Below are positions 21,127-58,376 of a stretch of 64,000 nt of DNA, piece after piece. Position 1 is the first letter of the stretch. Every line of letters starts with the position of its first letter. This stretch comes from an uncultured Candidatus Saccharibacteria bacterium (lineage in GTDB: Bacteria > Patescibacteriota > Minisyncoccia > UBA6257 > 2-01-FULL-56-20). Below the pieces are notes generated by a model. It was not told the origin of the DNA. It saw only the letters and a program-made list of their open reading frames with translations, and made no database searches. The DNA lies in the NCBI GenBank assembly GCA_964361595.1, contig CAYIAX010000001.1, forward strand, positions 32,100 to 96,099, in the 5' to 3' direction. Position numbers and translations under genes: made by a program.

Positions 21127-21831
21127 TCAAATAGCTTGCGCAGTTTGCGCGGCGGATACGTTTTTGTTGCCTGGTCTTATTCGTACGAATAAGACCAGGC
21201 AACAAATAAGGTGATACGGATGGGGAGGTATTCTGGTAAGTGAAAATAAAATCCGCCGCGACCCAACCTCGAAAGGTGGATCGTCGGCGGACGCGCGGAT
21301 AAGAACGAGTGTGCCGTCCGCGACCCAGACGAACAGGTCGCAGAAATCTTGTCGACGGAGGAAGACCGAGCCAACGCTCACCGGTTCCCCGATGAGTTTG
21401 GGATCGATCGTTGGCTGACCAGTCGACAGGTGCTGCGGCCAGCCGAGGACGCCAGTGGACACGATCGTGCCGGTTTCGTCTTGGAGCACGATGAATGCTC
21501 CAAACGAAACGCGATCCAGGTCGCCTTCGCGTATTTCTTGGATCAGCTTGCCGGCCACGGTGAAGCGGCCGGTCGGCGTCGGCTGCTCCGGCCTGCCGGC
21601 GGAGCAGGGGAAAGAAAACTCCTCCTGCTTGCCGCGGAAGGCCTGCAGCTGGCACTTGCCGTTCCGGTCACGCAAGGTGACCAGAATCCGTTTCGCGGCC
21701 GGTGCCGGGGCAGGTGTCTCCTCTACAGCCGGAGCAGCCTGAATAGGCCGTTTCTTGCCGCTGCCGCACCCGTGCGCGAGCACGAATGCCGCAAGCAGTA
21801 AGAAAGCCGCGACAAAAATAATTTTTTTCAT
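21127..21831 (-). CDS. high-GC secreted/lipoprotein-like hypothetical protein; the C-terminal ~35 aa may be read-through
   Basis: Signal peptide plus lipobox-like LAHGCGSG. About 62% GC. The ORF runs through the 44-nt palindrome before the first in-frame stop, so the true 3' end is uncertain. Confidence 0.4.
   Translation of the reverse strand: MKKIIFVAAFLLLAAFVLAHGCGSGKKRPIQAAPAVEETPAPAPAAKRILVTLRDRNGKCQLQAFRGKQEEFSFPCSAGRPEQPTPTGRFTVAGKLIQEIREGDLDRVSFGAFIVLQDETGTIVSTGVLGWPQHLSTGQPTIDPKLIGEPVSVGSVFLRRQDFCDLFVWVADGTLVLIRASADDPPFEVGSRRILFSLTRIPPHPYHLICCLVLFVRIRPGNKNVSAAQTAQAI
21163..21206. terminator. 44-nt perfect palindrome (bidirectional terminator-like) between convergent genes
   Basis: TTTGTTGCCTGGTCTTATTCGTA / TACGAATAAGACCAGGCAACAAA. 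Flanked by T/A runs. Confidence 0.55.
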
Positions 21832-23878: not shown

Positions 23879-24988
23879 ATGATTAAGTATTTGAGCAACG
23901 CGCCCAAACAAGCCTTGCGCGGAACTGCTTTGCTACGATTGGATTTCAATACCGAGGACGAGTGGCGGATGCAGGCGGCCTTGCCGACCCTGCGGTTGCT
24001 CCTTCGGTCTGCGGACAAAATAATCATCGTGAGTCACAAAGGACGGCCCCTTGCGGGCAAGCCCGTCGGCCGCAAGGCAAAATTCAGTTTGCGAAAAAAC
24101 GGCGCCGATCTTTCCCGTAGCCTCAAGTGGCGAGTAATTTTTATTCCGCATTTCCGTTTCGCCGAAATTAAAAAACAAGTTTTGGCCGCGCCCAAAGGCA
24201 GTGTCTTTTTGCTCGAAAACATTAGGTTCCTTCCCGGCGAAACTTCGCGTAGTCCGGAGCTGGCCGAGATATTAGCAGGGCTCGCGGATTATTATGTGAA
24301 TGATGCGTTTGCCGTTTCGCATCGGAGCGATGCTTCGGTGGCGCGCGTAGAAAAATTTTTACCCAGCTATGCCGGGCTTGAATTAGAAAAAGAAATCAAA
24401 TCGCTTTCGCATTTGCGCGGTCGCCCGCGGCGGCCGCTCGTGATCGTCTTGGGCGGGGCAAAGGTTAGCGATAAGTTGGGCATCGTTACGGAATTTTTGA
24501 AAAAGGCTGATTATTTTTTGATCGGCGGCGCGGCGGCGAATACGCTTTTGGCAATGAAAGGGGAGCGGGTGGGCGCTTCTTTGCGCGAGCGAGATCCACG
24601 CGTGCTTCAAGGTTTGCGAAAATTACTTCGCAATCCAAAAGTTGTTTTGCCCATTGATGTGCATCGCGAGCGCAACGTTATTTATGATATCGGCCCGCGC
24701 ACAGCCGTAAAATTCGCCGGAATTTTAAAAAAAGCGCGAACGGTTTTCTGGAGCGGCCCCATGGGTTTGTTTGAAAAGAAAAAATTTGCGCAGGGTTCGC
24801 TCGCGGTAGCGCGGGCGATTGCGGCTAACCGCCGCGCGTTCTCCGTAACCGGCGGGGGAGAAACGGTGCGCTTTTTGAAACAGCATCGGTTGGACAAGAA
24901 ATTCAGCTTTATTTCCACCGGCGGCTCGGCCATGCTGGATTTTCTGGCCGGCGAAGAGCTGCCCGGCATAGCCGCTCTTTCTACTTAG
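23879..24988 (+). CDS. pgk: phosphoglycerate kinase
   Basis: 369 aa. LRLDFN ... N-terminus, IVSHKGRP, FWSGPMGLFE, and a GGGE/STGG C-terminal region. Confidence 0.82.
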   Translation: MIKYLSNAPKQALRGTALLRLDFNTEDEWRMQAALPTLRLLLRSADKIIIVSHKGRPLAGKPVGRKAKFSLRKNGADLSRSLKWRVIFIPHFRFAEIKKQVLAAPKGSVFLLENIRFLPGETSRSPELAEILAGLADYYVNDAFAVSHRSDASVARVEKFLPSYAGLELEKEIKSLSHLRGRPRRPLVIVLGGAKVSDKLGIVTEFLKKADYFLIGGAAANTLLAMKGERVGASLRERDPRVLQGLRKLLRNPKVVLPIDVHRERNVIYDIGPRTAVKFAGILKKARTVFWSGPMGLFEKKKFAQGSLAVARAIAANRRAFSVTGGGETVRFLKQHRLDKKFSFISTGGSAMLDFLAGEELPGIAALST

Positions 24989-25084
24989 TCTGACAAATAC
25001 TTGTATTCGAATGGGCGCATTTGTAGTGCGCTATTCGCATGCAAAACAAAGGGTTTTTTGTCCACTGATTATGCACATTTGGTG

Positions 25085-25112
25085 TTGACTTGGATCTAGT
25101 AAAGCGTAATAT
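25085..25112 (+). promoter_or_regulatory. sigma70-like promoter TTGACT-N16-TAATAT for the downstream ORF-free RNA
   Basis: TTGACT at 25085-25090, TAATAT at 25107-25112. Confidence 0.5.
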
Positions 25113-25118
25113 CAAAGT

Positions 25119-25820
25119 CAGCGTCAATTGAAAAAACACAATTTGGATGCGTCCGGTGTGAAGAATGATCTGGAGCCAATGAAACCGTCTTTTAGGGAAA
25201 CCTACTGACGGCGGAGGAACCAGCGAATCTGGCCCAGCGTGTTCGCAAGAATGCGTCGGGTCGGAATCGATCTTTAGTCGCGGAGGTGTTCGGAACTTCG
25301 CGGCACGGAGCAGAACGGTTGGCGCAAGCTGGCCGTCTGCAAAAATCACCTTCCATCGTTTAGAGAAGTCTGCGCATGGATTGTTCCTCCAGTAATGGGG
25401 GTTCCTCTGGCAACAGGGGGTAATACTGGCGCAGGATTAGTTGGTGATGTATTTGCACCGGATTCGGCTGGCGAAAGTTGGTCGTTGAACGTGCGAGTTA
25501 CGTCGTCGCTCTTCATCCCTGGGGTGCTGCCCGAGGCGCCCTAAAATAAAAACTGCGGCCAGTTGGCAAACTGGCTCGCAGAAATCTCTTCTATGCGTCC
25601 TGTTCTGGAAAGGGTGAGGCGACATCTCTTTCGCTTTGGGAACCCCCGTTCCCTTAGCGTATACCGGCTGTGCTTTGCGCTCCGCCGGTAAAGACAGCGG
25701 AACTTCGGTTCCGCAGCCGGCTGACGCGGGAGCAATCCTGCGTTATGCGAGGGATGCCCCTCCACCCTGACCGGAATCTTCATTAGTGCCTCTCCGCTTC
25801 GTGCGTCGAGAGGCATTTTT
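25119..25820 (+). ncRNA. candidate ~700-nt structured non-coding RNA of unknown class
   Basis: No ORF of 60 aa or more on the + strand. GC about 58% against about 48% in the flanks. Own promoter and a strong intrinsic terminator (GCCTCTC ... GAGAGGC, then T-tract, at 25788-25827). GNRA-tetraloop hairpins at 25404-25419 and 25726-25741. UUCG hairpin at 25699-25712. Further perfect hairpins at 25558-25577 and 25638-25653. Confidence 0.45.
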
Positions 25821-25827
25821 CTTTTTT
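25788..25827 (+). terminator. intrinsic terminator of the candidate ncRNA
   Basis: 7-bp GC-rich stem GCCTCTC/GAGAGGC followed by ATTTTTCTTTTTT. Confidence 0.75.
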
Positions 25828-25841
25828 GGTATACTTAAAAA

Positions 25842-27083
25842 ATGGACGGCGAGACAAGAAACTGTCAGAACTGTAAAAATATTTTCACGATCGAGCCGGA
25901 AGATTTTTCGTTTTACGAAAAAATCAAAGTCCCGCCGCCGACGTTTTGCTGGCTATGCAGACGGCAACGCCGTTTGGCATGGAGGAATTATCTTAATTAC
26001 TATAAGCGAACCTGCGGCCTAACGAATGAACCGATAATTTCTTTATACGCTCCCGACTCGGGAATTACCGTTTACTCTCCGAAAGCATGGTTTTCGGATG
26101 ACTGGAATGCGCTTGATTATGGTCGTGATTATGATTTTTCGAAACCGTTTTTCGAGCAATATGCCGAACTTCTCCGCAGCGTTCCTAAGCCGGCGATGGA
26201 TAACGATGATGGATTAGCAAGCGTTAATTGTATGTATACGAATGATTTTGCCATGAGCAAAAATTGTTATTTGGTTATTAAAGCCTGGAAGGTTGAGGAT
26301 GTGATGTATTCGTTTTGGGTGGTAAGCGGCCGTGATTTTATGGACGCCCATATAAGTTTTGGCAAGGATGAAGGCAATTACGAAACCGTGAACACAGAAC
26401 ATTGTTATCAATGCCGTTATACTTATGATTCGCGCAGTTGTTCCGATTGCGCTTTTGTTTACGACTGCCGCAATTGCGACCACTGTTTCATGTGCACGGG
26501 ACTGCGCGGAAAATCTTATTATTTCAAGAACAAGGAGGTTGGCAAGGAACAGTACGAAAAGATCATCAAGGAATACTCCCTGCACTCTTATTCGGGAACC
26601 GAGCGGGCAAAGAAAGAATTTGAACCAATCCTAAATAACCATCCGCGTAAAGCTTTGCGCATGGTTAATTGTAAAAATTGTTTCGGTGACCTTGTTTTCA
26701 ATAGTAATAATTGTAAATACTGTTTTGTGGTGTTGGGCAGCGAAAATTACAAATACTGCAATTATGCCGATGGAGCAAAGGATGCCTATGATTCAGATGC
26801 GGGCGGAGGCGGAGAACTCATGTATGAGACCGATTTAAGCGCGTTCTCATCCCGCGTTATCGGCAGTTTTCTTGCCTGGCAGTGCCAAGATTCCTATTAT
26901 CTTACTCACACTTATAGGAGCCGCGATTGTTTCGGTTGTAGCGGCTTAAAAGATGCGCGGTATTGTATCTTGAACAAGCAGTATACTAAAGAAGAATACT
27001 TCGGAGCTTATGCCGAAAATCAGGCGGCACATGGACGAAATGCCCTATGTGAATTCACGGGGCAGGAAACACGCATTTGGTGA
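25842..27083 (+). CDS. cysteine-rich repeat protein with N-terminal C4 zinc-ribbon (paralog 1), leaderless start
   Basis: 413 aa. N-terminal CQNC ... (21 aa) ... CWLC. At least 5 repeats of a roughly 21-aa unit carrying S-x2-C-x2-C-F. Extended -10 box TGgTATACT at 25827-25835 lies 6 nt before the ATG. Confidence 0.6.
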   Translation: MDGETRNCQNCKNIFTIEPEDFSFYEKIKVPPPTFCWLCRRQRRLAWRNYLNYYKRTCGLTNEPIISLYAPDSGITVYSPKAWFSDDWNALDYGRDYDFSKPFFEQYAELLRSVPKPAMDNDDGLASVNCMYTNDFAMSKNCYLVIKAWKVEDVMYSFWVVSGRDFMDAHISFGKDEGNYETVNTEHCYQCRYTYDSRSCSDCAFVYDCRNCDHCFMCTGLRGKSYYFKNKEVGKEQYEKIIKEYSLHSYSGTERAKKEFEPILNNHPRKALRMVNCKNCFGDLVFNSNNCKYCFVVLGSENYKYCNYADGAKDAYDSDAGGGGELMYETDLSAFSSRVIGSFLAWQCQDSYYLTHTYRSRDCFGCSGLKDARYCILNKQYTKEEYFGAYAENQAAHGRNALCEFTGQETRIW

Positions 27084-27537
27084 TTATCCGCCAATCGAGC
27101 TTTCTTATTTTCCCTATAACGATACGGCGGCCCAGTCGCTTTATCCGCTAACGAAAGAGGAAGTCCAGGCGAATAATTTTAAATGGTCCGAACCGAATCG
27201 AGCGGAAGATTTATCAGGTGCAATTCCGGCCGAAGAACTGCCGGACAGCATTTTCGACGTAGGAGACGATATCCTCCAGAAAACGATCATTTCTAAATCA
27301 TCAAACCGAAAATACCGCATTACCCGACAGGAACTGCTTTTTTACCGCAAATATAAAATTCCACTTCCTCGGGAATCTTTTTTCGAGCGGTATGAAAGGC
27401 GAAGTCGTATGGCAACCTCGTTCCGTTTCTATGAAAGAAAAAGTGACAAGTCGGGAGAACCGATCATAACTTATTATCCACCGGAAGCTCCGCAAAAAGT
27501 ATGGAGTATTGATGAATATAAAGCCGAATTTGAATGA
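27040..27537 (+). CDS. hypothetical protein overlapping the 3' end of paralog 1 in the +1 frame (independent gene or frameshifted extension)
   Basis: The frame-1 ORF is open from 27010. It contains FYRKYKIPLP, which resembles the FYEKIKVPPP motif of the paralog N-termini. Confidence 0.3.
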   Translation: MPYVNSRGRKHAFGDYPPIELSYFPYNDTAAQSLYPLTKEEVQANNFKWSEPNRAEDLSGAIPAEELPDSIFDVGDDILQKTIISKSSNRKYRITRQELLFYRKYKIPLPRESFFERYERRSRMATSFRFYERKSDKSGEPIITYYPPEAPQKVWSIDEYKAEFE

Positions 27538-28148
27538 ATATGAACTCCGAAACCAGAAACTGTCAGAACTGTAAAAATATTTTCACGATTGAACCAGAAG
27601 ATTTTTTGTTCTACGAAAAAATCAAAGTCCCGCCGCCGACTTTCTGTCCGCAGTGTCGGATGCAGCGGCGGATGGCATTTCGGAACGAAAGGACGTTATT
27701 CAGGCAAAAGTGCGCTCTGACCGGAAAAGATATTATCAGCTGCTTTTCCCCTGAATCGAAAATGGTGGTTTATGATCGTGATGTTTGGTGGAAAACCGAC
27801 TGGGATCCCTTGACGGTCGGAGTCCAGTACGATTTTAACATCCTATTTTTCCTTCAGTTCAAAAAACTCATGGAACGAACTCCGATGCCGGCTGTATTCA
27901 GCGGCAGATCGGAGAATAGCATCTATGGAAATTATATCAGCGACTTTAAAAATGCCTATTTAGTATCGGCATCGAACCTGCATGTGCAGTTTAGGGGTCG
28001 GGAACCAGGAGCCTGGCACCAGGTACCAGAATACCAGTTTGCACTTTCATGGCGATGCTCCGTGTCCGAATGAATTTGAAACCAGCTATGCGCCGGAACG
28101 CCAGGAGACTGTTTATTGTGAGCAGTGCTACAACGCAGAGATTATTTA
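27534..28148 (+). pseudogene. degraded paralog 2 of the cysteine-rich protein (N-terminal domain in frame 0, homologous C-terminus in frame +1, repeat region deleted)
   Basis: The first 33 aa are 32/33 identical to paralog 1 (nucleotides 27547-27642 against 25852-25947, about 88% identical). Frame 0 stops at 28073. Frame +1 (27964-28148) encodes HGDAPCPNEFETS ... CEQCYNAEII, which is homologous to the paralog-1 C-terminus. Confidence 0.45.
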
Positions 28149-28216: not shown

Positions 28217-29161
28217 ATGGTATACGACATTTATTTTCATGATGATTTTGACGGGCGCGCTTCGGCGGCGGTGCTTTGGGATTATTTAAAAAAACGGGGA
28301 GACGATATCAAGGGTTTTTATACAGTTGATTATGCGCTCGAACCGCGCTGGCCGAAGTTCAAATTCCCGCGGCCGGCGATTATTGTGGATTTTCTTTACC
28401 ATCCCAAAGCCGCGATGTGGTTCGATCACCATGTGATGCCGTTCCTTTTGCCTGCCTGGAAAAAATCTTTCCGGCGCACGAAAAATATGCATTGGGATTC
28501 GCGCTATGCTTCCTGTTGCCATTTTATTATGGACGAGCTTACGAAGTACCTTGGTTACCGCCCGCCGGTGCATATCCGCGAATTGGCGAAATGGCTAGAC
28601 GTAATTGACGGCGCGAATTACAAGTCGGCCAGGCAAGTGATTGAAATGAAAGAAGCGCCGATTCAGCTCGCGTATTTCATCGAAGGCAGGGGCAAAAAGG
28701 GCGATCCGAAGACGTGGCTCATAAAATTGTTGGCGGAAATGCCTTTAGGGGAGATCGTCAAAGTGCCGCGCGTAGCAAAAACCATAAGCCGGATCCGCAA
28801 AGATCTCACAAGCTCGCTTGCATACTACCGCGCGCATTCCGAAGTAAACGGCAAAACGGTTTTTACCAATGTTACCGAACACACCGGGCTTAAGGTCAGG
28901 TTTGCCCCTTTTTATCTTTTTCCAACTTGCGTTTATAGTCTTACGCTCAAGCGTGAGCGGGGCGGCAATTATCATTTGACTGTGGGCGCAAGCCCCTGGC
29001 GAAGAGAAGAGAATGGATTTCACATCGGCAAATTCATGCATGAGCGTTTCGGCGGCGGGGGACATAAAAACGTCGGCGGCGCTGATATCCAGAGTGGAAA
29101 ACGGGCCTTGGCCATTACACGCGAAATTATAAAATTCTTGCTTAAGCGTTATGGCTGGTAA
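28217..29161 (+). CDS. DHH/DHHA1-family phosphoesterase (NrnA-like nanoRNase / pAp phosphatase)
   Basis: 314 aa. HDDFDG (motif I), FDHH (DHH motif), GGGH in the DHHA1 domain. Confidence 0.6.
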   Translation: MVYDIYFHDDFDGRASAAVLWDYLKKRGDDIKGFYTVDYALEPRWPKFKFPRPAIIVDFLYHPKAAMWFDHHVMPFLLPAWKKSFRRTKNMHWDSRYASCCHFIMDELTKYLGYRPPVHIRELAKWLDVIDGANYKSARQVIEMKEAPIQLAYFIEGRGKKGDPKTWLIKLLAEMPLGEIVKVPRVAKTISRIRKDLTSSLAYYRAHSEVNGKTVFTNVTEHTGLKVRFAPFYLFPTCVYSLTLKRERGGNYHLTVGASPWRREENGFHIGKFMHERFGGGGHKNVGGADIQSGKRALAITREIIKFLLKRYGW

Positions 29162-29794: not shown

Positions 29795-29800
29795 AGCCAC

Positions 29801-30408
29801 GGGTACTTCAGGCGATTACTCCCGGCTTAGCCGGGAGAGGAAAGTCGGGACACTCACTGATTTCTTTTAAGAAAGATTAATCCTTAAAAGAGACCGGTCA
29901 AAAAGGTATCCGCTAACGGCGGACCACCGCAAGGTGAAAGGTGCGAACAGAGACGCCGAACATCGAAAGGTGTGAGGCGCCCCCCCCGGTTTATACGAGG
30001 GGGGTGAGCGAAGTTATAAGAAGGGGTCCTCCTTCGCCGCAAGGCTTCGAAGGATCTTCGCGAAGGCTTCGATGAAACGGCAAAATCCTTACCGAGTGCA
30101 AGGCCGTACTCCAGTGCGTAGCACTGGAAATTCGAAATTCGAATATCGAAATTCGAAACAATAAACCGCTTTGGAATTTGTTTCGTGCTTCGGATTTAGA
30201 ACTTCGTGCTTCCAACGCTGCGCATTGGTTTGTGCCGCTTGAGCCTGAGAGCAATCGAGGGCCCAGATAAATGATCGCGCCGGTTTACTCGAGTTTACGA
30301 GAAAGTTGATACCCGCCTTCGTCCTTCGGACTTTGGCGAGGTCTCAATTTACTAGCTCGCTAAGCTCGCAGTAAATTGGACAGAATCCCGCTTACGAAGT
30401 GCCACGAT
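29801..30408 (+). ncRNA. rnpB: RNase P RNA (bacterial type-A-like, expanded to ~608 nt)
   Basis: P1 pairing GGUACUUC / GAAGUGCC. P3 hairpin CCCGGCUUAGCCGGG. P4 5' strand GAGGAAAGUCGGGAC and P4 3' strand ACAGAAUCCCGCUUAC. CR-II/III-like AAGGUGAAAGGUGCG-AACAGAGACGCC. Terminator at 30409-30443. Confidence 0.78.
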
Positions 30409-30443
30409 CCTCACATCTGATTCAGGTGTGGGGATTTGTTTTT
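30409..30443 (+). terminator. intrinsic terminator after rnpB
   Basis: CCTCACATC / GGTGTGGGG stem followed by ATTTGTTTTTGG. Confidence 0.55.
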
Positions 30444-45597: not shown

Positions 45598-45668
45598 TTG
45601 CCGGGCAGGGATTCGAACCCCGACTTGTCCTGAATCTATTGAAGGATAAACGACTTTCCCGCACAGAG
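45598..45668 (-). pseudogene. degenerate tRNA-like sequence (intact T-arm GGGGTTCGAATCCCT and acceptor-like 3' end, no foldable D or anticodon arms)
   Basis: The reverse complement carries CGGGG-TTCGAAT-CCCTG plus CCCGGCA. The 5' half cannot form a 7-bp acceptor stem or a canonical anticodon stem. Only about 64 nt are available. Confidence 0.3.
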
Positions 45669-45739
45669 CTGGGGGACAGGGATTCGAACCCCGATACCAT
45701 CCTTCAAAGGGATGTGTCCTACCATTAGACGATCCCCCA
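45669..45739 (-). tRNA. tRNA-Gln (anticodon UUG)
   Basis: Reverse complement TGGGGGA-TC-GTCT-AATGGTA-GGAC-A-CATCC-CTTTGAA-GGATG-GTAT-CGGGG-TTCGAAT-CCCTG-TCCCCCA-G. Cloverleaf with a 7-bp acceptor, anticodon TTG, A37, discriminator G. No encoded CCA. Confidence 0.8.
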
Positions 45740-48085: not shown

Positions 48086-48206
48086 AATGCAAAAATCAAA
48101 GATCAAAATTATCCGGCTACGAAATACAAAATCCGCCAGCTGGCGGATACGAATATACTAAATTTCGTATATTTGTAATAAATTTGTATTTCGTAGCAAT
48201 AGCAAT

Positions 48207-48425
48207 ATGAAAATTTTTGTGAATGCGAAGCCGGGAGCAAAAACAGCGGGAGTGGAAAAAATTGACGACACGCATTTTAAAGTTGCCGTCAAAGAACCGG
48301 CCAAAGAAGGGAAGGCCAACTACGCGATTATGTCTGCGCTCGCGGAATATTTCGGTATAAGCTTGGCAAAAATCCGGCTCGTGTCCGGCATGAGCTCTCG
48401 GCAAAAAGTTTTTGAGATACTTTAG
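48207..48425 (+). CDS. DUF167 (YggU-like) protein
   Basis: 72 aa. The KIFVNAKPGAK ... HFKVAVKEPAKEGKAN ... L ... YFGI ... IRLVSG pattern. Confidence 0.65.
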   Translation: MKIFVNAKPGAKTAGVEKIDDTHFKVAVKEPAKEGKANYAIMSALAEYFGISLAKIRLVSGMSSRQKVFEIL

Positions 48426-48438
48426 TTACGATGAGCTC

Positions 48439-48490
48439 AAAACTCACCCTTAAAAACTTGAGAACTTGAGATTTTAAGGGTGAGTTTTTT
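48439..48490 (+). terminator. intrinsic terminator
   Basis: AAAACTCACCCTTAAAA ... TTTTAAGGGTGAGTTTTTT. Confidence 0.7.
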
Positions 48491-48852
48491 ATGAAATCAC
48501 TGTCTAAGCCAGAATATTTCACAGCTTACAGCTTGGCGACTAATTCACTCTCTCGCGTTTGTAAATTCATCAAGAGTCAAGGTGCCATGATGCATCATAG
48601 CGCCAAGCCCGCGCGTTATTATTTCAGAACAAAATATCTAAAATATGCTGGCAGAATGTCCCGCGATTCGAGGCGCGGCCGGTTATCCGGAAGTTGTTTT
48701 TTAGGCTTTGCCAGTTATCCACAATTTTATTGACGCTTTCTGACAAAAGGTATATTAGTTAACTAGCAGGGTCCTTTTTTCGCCGAGCCAACGCGCCTGG
48801 ATCGGCGGCAATGTAAACGGTCCATGGACTGAAGAAAAGGAAGAGAACGTCA

Positions 48853-49056
48853 ATGAGAGAAAGAGTTTCTTCCGAGTCGGTCTGTCCTGGGTGCCACGCC
48901 ATCATGGCACCCCACGATCCTTTTGTCGAATTGGTGGGAAACGAGGTCTGGCACAAGCCGTGCCATGACCGAGAGGAGCGGAAGCTGCGGAACGCAGCGG
49001 CCGTTGCGGCAGTGCCGCAGGCCCGTTCGGCACCATTCAACTATGTCGCCCAGTAG
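48853..49056 (+). CDS. small high-GC Cys/His-containing protein (67 aa), hypothetical zinc-binding
   Basis: Own promoter (TTGACG ... TATATT at 48730-48756), AAAGGAAGAG Shine-Dalgarno, CPGCH ... H ... C ... H motif, strong terminator at 49079-49122. About 63% GC. Confidence 0.4.
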   Translation: MRERVSSESVCPGCHAIMAPHDPFVELVGNEVWHKPCHDREERKLRNAAAVAAVPQARSAPFNYVAQ

Positions 49057-49078
49057 GGGGCGACAGGCGCATTCATTA

Positions 49079-49122
49079 AGCCCCCGGAACGATTCTTCCA
49101 TGAATCGTCCCGGGCTTTTTTT
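49079..49122 (+). terminator. intrinsic terminator
   Basis: GCCCCCGGAACGATTC ... GAATCGTCCCGGGC followed by TTTTTTT. Confidence 0.75.
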
Positions 49123-49277
49123 ATTTACATATCTAAAGCTGCTTTTTGTAATAGAAATAAAGGCTTTTCGTCGCATAAATCGCACGGTTAGTGAATTTAC
49201 CCCGACTTAAAAGCCGGAGTTCAGGCGTCTAACCGCGCCGTCTAAAAGGTCGTAATTAGCGCCGAAAAATTTCTTCT

Positions 49278-49511
49278 ATGCACGAAGTTCACCATCACGA
49301 CGATCTTGGTACGGGCACGGGCGTATATGTGTTCCTGGCATTTATCATTACGCTTTTAGTGGTAGGCTTGCTCGTCTGGAGATTCCTGCCGTCGCGGGCT
49401 TCGGAGGAAGGCGAGCGACCGGGCCAGATCAATGTAAATATGCCGAGCTTGCCGTTGCCGGGAAACACCGAGGGAGGAAGCCAAAACTCGCCCAACCAAC
49501 CCACCTATTAA
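49278..49511 (+). CDS. small membrane protein, hypothetical
   Basis: 77 aa with one TM helix. Terminator at 49500-49535. Confidence 0.35.
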   Translation: MHEVHHHDDLGTGTGVYVFLAFIITLLVVGLLVWRFLPSRASEEGERPGQINVNMPSLPLPGNTEGGSQNSPNQPTY

Positions 49512-49590
49512 TAGAGGTGGGTTTGTTGTATTTTGGCTACGAATTACGAATTTTTTACGAATATACGAATGATATATTTTTAACTGTGTT

Positions 49591-56768: not shown

Positions 56769-56785
56769 AATGCTACAATTTGATC

Positions 56786-57184
56786 ATGAGTGGTCTTTCG
56801 AAAAATTGGATGATGCCGCCCCAAGGTGATTATTCCTCACGTAAAGAATGGGAAATAGCTTGCTGGCAAAAACTTTTAGACTCTACTGACTTGATTGATC
56901 TGCTTACCACCCCGCACGAACGCAGAGATTTTGTCATGCGTGCCGCCGCACTTAACATGATTATGTCTGGGAAAAGTTACCGCGAGATTGGCCGCGAGTT
57001 ATGGCTTTCTCCGCAAACAATAAGCGGGCTCAAAAAAGCCTTGGAGGAAAAAATTTATCGGAGCTATTTAGAGCGGAGTAAAACTGAACGCAAAAAGAGA
57101 GTATACAGTTCTAAGCCAGACAAGTTACAGCCGAAGCACCGTGGCATACCACGCCGGACCAAATACGGAAAGATTTACATTTGA
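56786..57184 (+). CDS. YerC/YecD (TrpR-related) HTH protein, leaderless
   Basis: MIMSGKSYREIGRELWLSPQTISGLKKAL matches the TrpR-like HTH. TACAAT at 56774-56779 lies 6 nt upstream of the ATG at 56786. The ORF track starts at a TTG at 56780. Confidence 0.5.
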   Translation: MSGLSKNWMMPPQGDYSSRKEWEIACWQKLLDSTDLIDLLTTPHERRDFVMRAAALNMIMSGKSYREIGRELWLSPQTISGLKKALEEKIYRSYLERSKTERKKRVYSSKPDKLQPKHRGIPRRTKYGKIYI

Positions 57185-57857: not shown

Positions 57858-58376
57858 CTAGTTTGCGGTGGTGTGAGCGAGGGCCTGCGCGGTCCTCGCC
57901 TTGTTTACCACCGCCTGCGTCAGACGGTGGGCGCGGCGCACGAGCTGCGTGATCTCCTTGCGCGCCTCGGCGGTCTCGCGGGTGGTTGCGCCGAGCTTGG
58001 CGAGATCGCCCAGCGTCGCCGTGCGGCGCTGACGCTCGACGTGCGCCCGGCTCTCCGCGAGCTCGCGCTCGCGGCGCGCCTGCGCTTCCGCGCGCGCTCG
58101 CGCTGCGGCCGCGCGCTCCTGGATTTGACCCAGATAGCGCAGGGCCGCGGGCAGCGGATGGAGCCGCACGTCCTGCCTCCGCTCACGCTCGCGGGCGCAC
58201 CGCGAGCAGAGCGCGAAGCTCCGCACCTGTTCGTCCGTGAGGTCGGCGATCCCGACTTCACGGTCGAGGATGCTCTCCACGGCGGTCGCGATTCCGGCGA
58301 GCGCGAGGACGCGGGTGCCGCTTTTCAGCATTTGGGCACGGCAGCCGTGCCCAGCGCATTTCAAAATCTGTGGCAT
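57858..58376 (-). CDS. very high-GC (~70%) zinc-ribbon/coiled-coil hypothetical protein
   Basis: 172 aa. Strong AGGAGGTGG Shine-Dalgarno and TATAAT upstream on the minus strand. CAGHGC ... CSRC. Arg/Ala-rich coiled coil. GC-rich hairpins downstream. Confidence 0.5.
   Translation of the reverse strand: MPQILKCAGHGCRAQMLKSGTRVLALAGIATAVESILDREVGIADLTDEQVRSFALCSRCARERERRQDVRLHPLPAALRYLGQIQERAAAARARAEAQARRERELAESRAHVERQRRTATLGDLAKLGATTRETAEARKEITQLVRRAHRLTQAVVNKARTAQALAHTTAN

Follow-up and report, generated by a model that had tools for sequence, protein, structure and literature searches.

We analysed a window of 64,000 nucleotides (64 kb) of DNA from an uncultivated Patescibacterium (Paceibacteria/Minisyncoccia-like), in which pgk occupies positions 23879-24988 and a cysteine-rich (Cys-rich) gene begins with the ATG at 25842. 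The best database hits of this pgk share only ~63% identity with it, and all of them come from Patescibacteria. Between the pgk stop (24988) and the Cys-rich ATG lie 853 nt (24989-25841) without a substantial + strand ORF. The transcription signals in and next to this stretch are as follows.

25085-25112, + strand: predicted sigma-70-like promoter, TTGACT-16 nt-TAATAT, matching the consensus at 9 of 12 positions in a consensus scan; the presumed start is at ~25119
25786-25827, + strand: intrinsic terminator, a GC-rich stem of 9+3 bp followed by UUUUUCUUUUUU (dG -19.2 kcal/mol)
25827-25844, + strand: promoter of the next gene found by the scan, an extended -10 TGGTATACT followed after 6 nt by the ATG at 25842, leaderless and outside the RNA

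Gene neighbourhood and predicted transcript boundaries

Both the promoter at 25085-25112 and a strong intrinsic terminator had been claimed in an earlier note on this DNA, and both are present, the latter as a hairpin with a U-run that our terminator scan missed only because of its loop of more than 8 nt. Rfam similarities at 25786-25827 are weak and of the terminator type only. In relatives, pgk is followed by a DHH-like gene and then an RNase H-like gene, or by a Cys-rich gene after 47 nt (locus L005); the gap from pgk to the next gene is 0-50 nt, without a structured tail. In the window, the element and frameshifted Cys-rich paralogues lie between pgk and the DHH-like gene (28217-29161). 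As the latter is intact, we rejected the idea that the region is a pseudogene derived from this gene, which in relatives comes next after pgk.

The promoter of the Cys-rich gene appears to be conserved independently of the element. An identical TGGTATACT is located 7 nt before the ATG of a homologue at locus L010, which has no such RNA upstream, and in L005 a CATAAT lies 6 nt before the Cys-rich ATG, right after pgk. Because the Cys-rich gene keeps its own -10 beside the ATG, it would be expressed from a leaderless promoter of its own and would not have the structured region as its leader. The separation of the region from the next gene, as proposed in the earlier note, is thereby upheld.

These observations bear on the possibility that the region acts in cis on the Cys-rich gene, as a very long 5' leader or attenuator that senses a signal and gates passage past the terminator. 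Like T-box and riboswitch-tandem leaders, the candidate precedes a gene of the same orientation and is closed by an intrinsic terminator, which stops just 15 nt before the ATG at 25842. However, it is 3-5 times longer than such leaders, its 700 nt far exceed known attenuators, and it gave no Rfam hit to any riboswitch, T-box, ribosomal-protein leader or other leader family. The spacing of 6-7 nt between the -10 elements and the ATG in the window and in L010, like that of the CATAAT in L005, would place the mRNA start downstream of the terminator. Moreover, the closest homologues of the Cys-rich gene (88%, 84%, and 77% identity, ~564 aa) all lack a related upstream sequence. We therefore consider a leader function improbable.

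Transcription from pgk is a separate matter. A motif scan detected no terminator-like site on the + strand between the pgk stop and 25786, so read-through from pgk into the region is also possible, and pgk transcription probably enters it. The region might then belong to pgk, either as a long and structured 3' UTR or as an RNA processed out of the pgk transcript. We regard this origin as doubtful, in view of the 9/12 promoter match at 25085-25112 and of the relatives in which the next gene follows pgk within 0-50 nt with no tail; it would in any case alter only how the RNA is produced, not its status as a structured RNA.

The Cys-rich genes themselves deserve comment. The reading frames at 25842-27083 (413 aa) and 27010-27537 (175 aa) correspond to one protein of ~564 aa in homologues, the next paralogue at 27534-28073 looks truncated too, and the same split gene calls are found in both assemblies from the Hainich groundwater that cover these genes (L007 and L008). 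The family lacks a Pfam domain and is multi-copy in CPR genomes, L012 having four copies in tandem. In three organisms (25827-25844 in the window, 5985-6003 in L010, and 6213-6235 in L005), the -10 element ends 6-7 nt upstream of the ATG and a Shine-Dalgarno sequence is missing, which suggests leaderless translation of the Cys-rich family in Paceibacteria.

Coding potential and predicted fold

The earlier note had claimed that + strand ORFs of at least 60 aa are absent, which holds true for 24989-25785. The sole exception in the 853 nt is a 78-aa GTG ORF at 25786-26022, which begins within the terminator and for most of its length overlaps the next gene in another frame. The minus strand carries ORFs of 122, 91, and 62 aa, for which a Pfam search returned no match. 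Log-odds of codon usage, for which 25 long genes of the window including pgk served as the training set, were computed in 300-nt windows and are negative in all six frames and in every window of the region (maximum -0.03). They resemble those of the RNase P RNA in the same stretch of DNA and fall below every 300-nt window of the 25 training genes (minimum +0.004). The best minus-strand frame has just two stops in 237 codons, which is not unusual for the composition (P = 0.14 in shuffles). A word-indexed search of 5.8 billion proteins with this 237-codon frame found no homologue at E <= 10, and in an exhaustive HMMER search of 1.84 billion representatives its central 101 aa matched nothing but a tandem-repeat protein that is unrelated. 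The region thus lacks an open frame, host-like codon usage, and protein homologues, and the segment 25119-25830 (+) is non-coding. The earlier note had named a conserved protein-coding frame across homologues as an observation that would speak against an RNA; in this sequence itself, ORFs, codon usage, and protein searches show no coding signal.

The contrast in base composition was less pronounced than the ~58% GC against ~48% previously given, which was an overstatement: we measured 54.8% in the segment 25119-25830 and 50.1% in the window as a whole, with 50-58% in the upstream neighbour pgk. Two other genes of the window are GC-rich. The 172-aa gene at 57858-58376 (-) has ~70% GC in a 50% GC genome, carries its own TATAAT and AGGAGG without a Pfam hit, and was probably acquired horizontally, and the gene at 21127-21831 (-) encodes a YkuD-type L,D-transpeptidase lipoprotein.

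The 712 nt of 25119-25830 (+) have a minimum free energy (MFE) of -319.6 kcal/mol, compared with -258.3 +/- 7.6 kcal/mol for dinucleotide shuffles (z -8.1), whereas the reverse complement reaches only z -2.4. As controls from the same window, the RNase P RNA gave z -6.4 and a 712-nt coding stretch of pgk z +0.85. The strand asymmetry of folding arises because 43 of the 244 pairs in the MFE structure of the + strand are G-U pairs, and this G-U content points to selection at the RNA level and against DNA-level palindromes. Other intergenic regions of the window also beat their shuffles (z -4 to -12 in 15-shuffle tests), so the thermodynamic z alone is not unique to the region, and the excess of tetraloops and the strand asymmetry are more specific. 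Taken with the energies of the individual domains (z -5.1 to -7.3), these predictions indicate that the region is strongly and strand-specifically structured and has exceptional folding potential.

We counted, on both strands, the hairpins that combine a stem of 5 bp or more with a GNRA or UNCG tetraloop cap. The + strand of the region holds nine of them against 0.43 expected, a number reached in none of 2000 shuffles (0/2000; shuffle maximum 4), and the minus strand one against 0.25 expected. Among all 712-nt windows scanned on both strands of the 64 kb, the region has the highest density of tetraloop hairpins. The enumeration gave the following positions.

25237-25256, 25315-25336, 25403-25420, and 25722-25745, + strand: GCAA-capped hairpins
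25465-25484, + strand: GAAA-capped hairpin
25386-25401, + strand: GUAA-capped hairpin
25601-25616, + strand: GGAA-capped hairpin
25697-25714, + strand: UUCG-capped hairpin
25143-25156, + strand: UGCG-capped hairpin

The five hairpins singled out in the earlier note all lie where it had placed them, and there are further ones beyond its list.

The tetraloop excess is also what a decayed gene remnant or junk DNA with functionless hairpins would leave unexplained, being 20-fold and strand-specific. Such decay might be suspected from the minus-strand frame with two stops in 237 codons, from the adjacent Cys-rich paralogues, whose frameshifts relative to the ~564-aa homologues mean that the locus may be decaying, and from the confinement of the sequence to one population. 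Yet two stops in the best of six frames are ordinary (P = 0.14), this frame has no protein homologue at E <= 10 and found only the unrelated repeat protein with HMMER, and the codon log-odds are negative in all frames. We regard decay as unlikely.

Single-sequence MFE and partition-function calculations predict the architecture listed below, in which most helices have pair probabilities of at least 0.9 and three self-contained, multi-helix domains span ~175 nt each.

25119-25212, + strand: 5' segment with local hairpins at 25121-25150 and 25185-25211, the second enclosing UAGG-GAAA-CCUA (pair probabilities 0.73-0.96)
25213-25390, + strand: domain 1, an 8-bp closing helix GGAGGAAC/GUUCCUCC around four hairpins (helix probabilities 0.75-1.0)
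25386-25420, + strand: tandem GNRA hairpins CCUCCA-GUAA-UGGGGG and UCCUCUG-GCAA-CAGGGGG, from hairpin enumeration, a direct repeat
25428-25599, + strand: domain 2, a 6-bp closing helix around a ~85-nt GAAA-capped hairpin (25434-25518) and hairpins at 25520-25543 and 25553-25581
25602-25777, + strand: domain 3, an interrupted closing helix of ~25 bp (25602-25630 with 25749-25777) and a five-way junction (helix probabilities 0.74-1.0)

Each of the three domains is predicted to adopt the same structure when folded alone, and none of 200 shuffles was as good in any of the three cases (0/200 each). Domain 1 (-84.7 kcal/mol, z -5.85) includes two long, G-U-rich, GCAA-capped hairpins among its four (25224-25269 and 25310-25340). 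In domain 2 (-72.9 kcal/mol, z -5.07), the MFE structure equals the centroid, and an internal loop of the ~85-nt hairpin reads by eye as tandem G-A mismatches. MFE and centroid also coincide for domain 3 (-96.4 kcal/mol, z -7.33), the junction of which bears four hairpins capped by CCCC, UUU, UUCG, and GCAA. The tandem GNRA hairpins constitute an 18-nt imperfect tandem duplication, and the first of them competes with the closing helix of domain 1.

Direct repeats in the region are only short and scattered. One short module is present in two copies, each made up of a GCAA hairpin and a following GCARAAAUC..CUUC.AU. We rejected the notion that the three domains are diverged repeats of each other, as pairwise alignments gave z <=3.1 and a single short common module. 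Four copies of the motif CUUC(Y)AU lie in the RNA (25346-25357, 25506-25516, 25585-25595, and 25774-25785) against ~0.26 expected, a post-hoc hand count that may reflect coincidence. One copy lies inside AUCACCUUCC after a GNRA hairpin, a sequence with a loose likeness to the 3' end of 16S rRNA (GAUCACCUCCUU) that may be coincidental too.

Two other kinds of intergenic sequence in the window were recorded. The stretch 48086-49590 comprises 1.5 kb without large ORFs, although small ORFs are present, and is bounded by 34-nt TACGAA-rich inverted repeats (48164-48197 and 49536-49569) that are 88% complementary. On either strand the stretch folds much more stably than its shuffles (z ~-12 and ~-9), and it could be a small mobile or invertible element. 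The palindrome GTGCTATGCTATAGCATAGCAC occurs at least five times in the window between genes (31157, 39624, 56739, 57232, and 60618), and two of the copies flank a Trp-repressor-like HTH gene at 56780-57184; a role of the palindrome as an operator or another regulatory site is conceivable.

Described RNA families and the search for relatives

At gathering thresholds, Rfam 15 recognised one tRNA only in the whole window (45668-45739), and at E <= 10 the whole region and each third or domain of it returned nothing meaningful. The comparison with Rfam, which the earlier note had recommended, thus leaves the region without a family, in agreement with the failure reported there to match it to RNase P, tmRNA, SRP RNA, 6S RNA, or a riboswitch. 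ARAGORN, run for tmRNA and with introns allowed at default stringency, found no tRNA or tmRNA in the region; direct reading of the region revealed no T-arm, acceptor or CCA end, or tag-like ORF, and no + frame peptide ends in ...LAA. An intron-bearing tRNA or tmRNA was rejected on the ARAGORN result. The region contains no P4 motifs of bacterial RNase P and no RF00010 or RF00011 hit at E <= 10. With respect to group II introns, there is no RF00029 or D1-D4 hit and no domain V by reading, the best candidate hairpin for it (25722-25745) being, also by reading, an unbulged 10-bp stem. For group I introns, we found no RF00028 hit at E <= 10, no split tRNA, and no flanking exon halves. Divergent group I introns of Patescibacteria can escape RF00028 (PMC13011429). 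The region lies between two complete genes, where a free-standing group I intron is unlikely. A CsrB-like sponge of GGA motifs was rejected, as a hand count gave ~16-18 GGA against ~13 expected.

The RNase P RNA of the same organism provides an instructive comparison. As the earlier note had indicated, it is found elsewhere in the window, namely as a bacterial type A RNA at 29800-30410 (+), in which 611 nt cover the full 367-position model. Its Rfam score of 43.6 bits (E 3e-10) is below the gathering score of 100 because of ~245 nt of insertions, and standard annotation would miss it. The insertions include AAAUUCGAAAUUCGAAUAUCGAAAUUCGAAAC-type repeats. The candidate resembles this RNA in length, in z (-8.1 vs -6.4), in its equally negative coding potential, and in having GNRA- and UUCG-capped peripheral hairpins. 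Unlike the candidate, the RNase P RNA keeps the universal P4 motifs GAGGAAAGUC ... ACAGAAUCCCGCUUA together with its RF00010 hit.

A known RNA, be it tmRNA, SRP RNA, 6S RNA, or a group I intron whose host RNA gene went unrecognised, might likewise be disguised by lineage-specific insertions, as suggested by the swollen, sub-threshold RNase P RNA and by the Patescibacteria group I introns that RF00028 misses. However, the insertion-laden RNase P RNA was still detected at E 3e-10, whereas the candidate yielded nothing at E <= 10, whole or per domain. Together with the ARAGORN result and the lack of T-arm, acceptor/CCA end, LAA tag ORF, and flanking exon halves, this makes a disguised known RNA very unlikely.

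Stem-loop guide-RNA arrays of TIGR-Tas systems are ORF-free runs of ~13 hairpins and have been reported in Patescibacteria (PMC12045711), which brings such an array, or a CRISPR-like one, into consideration. The region shows no periodic units (TRF found nothing at score 30), its hairpins are irregular and nested in junctions, box D (CUGA) occurs three times against ~2.8 expected with no exact box C by reading, and the neighbouring genes encode no Nop-domain, Cas, or nuclease protein. We consider an array of either kind exceedingly improbable.

The OLE, GOLLD, ROOL, and raiA families are large, ornate bacterial ncRNAs whose functions are at best poorly understood, and they are defined by hundreds of covarying members. 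The candidate shares with them a 0.6-0.8 kb size class, an intergenic and ORF-free location, many helices, and multi-way junctions. It differs from them in its Patescibacteria host, in having no relatives found, and in that no phage or tRNA-gene neighbourhood was seen. The OLE, GOLLD, ROOL, raiA, and HEARO models gave no match, either at the gathering threshold or at E <= 10, to the whole region or to single domains. The likeness to OLE, GOLLD, ROOL, or group II introns drawn in the earlier note could therefore not be sustained, as nothing links the region specifically to any of them.

Other sightings of the organism come only from three assemblies of Hainich groundwater well H43, which are 100% identical here, along all 853 nt in the case of L007 and L008 and along 284 nt, up to the contig end, in that of L006. 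A search for homologues, as advised in the earlier note, was run by several routes and found none. Distant-mode blastn against phage and plasmid collections gave no homologue of the region, nhmmer and blastn revealed no paralogue elsewhere in the window, and nhmmer never found the element in 13 loci of relatives fetched via pgk and the Cys-rich gene. Peptide seeds from pseudo-translation likewise revealed no homologue in viral, GTDB-genome, and JGI-metagenome collections. The DNA pattern of the duplicated module (GCAA hairpin plus GCARAAAUC) had 57 metagenome and three viral-contig matches with no extended similarity. A pattern of the loops and junction of domain 3 had 28 GTDB matches without stem complementarity, none in Patescibacteria, and nothing in viral contigs. 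The element looks lineage-specific. The collection scans need near-exact seeds and would miss relatives at ~60-70% protein identity, the distance of the nearest known neighbours, so that their negative result is weak evidence of absence.

Possible nature of the RNA

We consider the region a credible, apparently lineage-specific candidate for a large structured non-coding RNA of ~710 nt that belongs to no described family. That it is a real, functional structured RNA produced as an independent unit seems to us somewhat more probable than the contrary. The segment ~25119-25827 (+) would then encode a stand-alone RNA, transcribed probably from its own sigma-70-type promoter, possibly with a contribution of read-through from pgk, and ending at the intrinsic terminator. 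It would fold into three autonomous domains built on multi-helix junctions and into accessory hairpins, with GNRA or UUCG loops closing most of them. The GNRA loops might serve in tertiary docking and could thereby give rise to a compact or self-associating architecture.

Such an RNA would act in trans, as a scaffold, an RNP component, or a ribozyme-like RNA, rather than as the leader of its neighbour. Judged by its anatomy, a folded trans-acting scaffold or RNP component with GNRA-mediated tertiary or quaternary contacts is the most likely role. The GNRA tetraloops of the candidate could mediate contacts of the kind that can be compared with published cryo-EM work (PMC12286853).

More tentatively, and with odds that we place a little short of even, the RNA may be the first representative of a novel class of ornate RNAs, large and multi-domain, confined to a lineage of Patescibacteria (CPR), with three junction domains of ~175 nt, a compact or oligomeric architecture built on GNRA contacts, and a catalytic or scaffolding role in a host with a minimal genome. 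The genomes of Patescibacteria are tiny, and a non-coding insertion of ~850 nt (853 nt) between genes that are adjacent in relatives would therefore be costly, which suggests a function.

Apart from rRNA, RNase P, and tmRNA, bacteria have few large structured RNAs, and OLE, GOLLD, ROOL, and raiA have each proved biochemically surprising. The sequence alone suffices for testing in vitro. If the candidate is real, large RNAs specific to single lineages are overlooked in CPR genomes when RNA annotation relies on known families; in the genome studied here, even the RNase P RNA is already sub-threshold.
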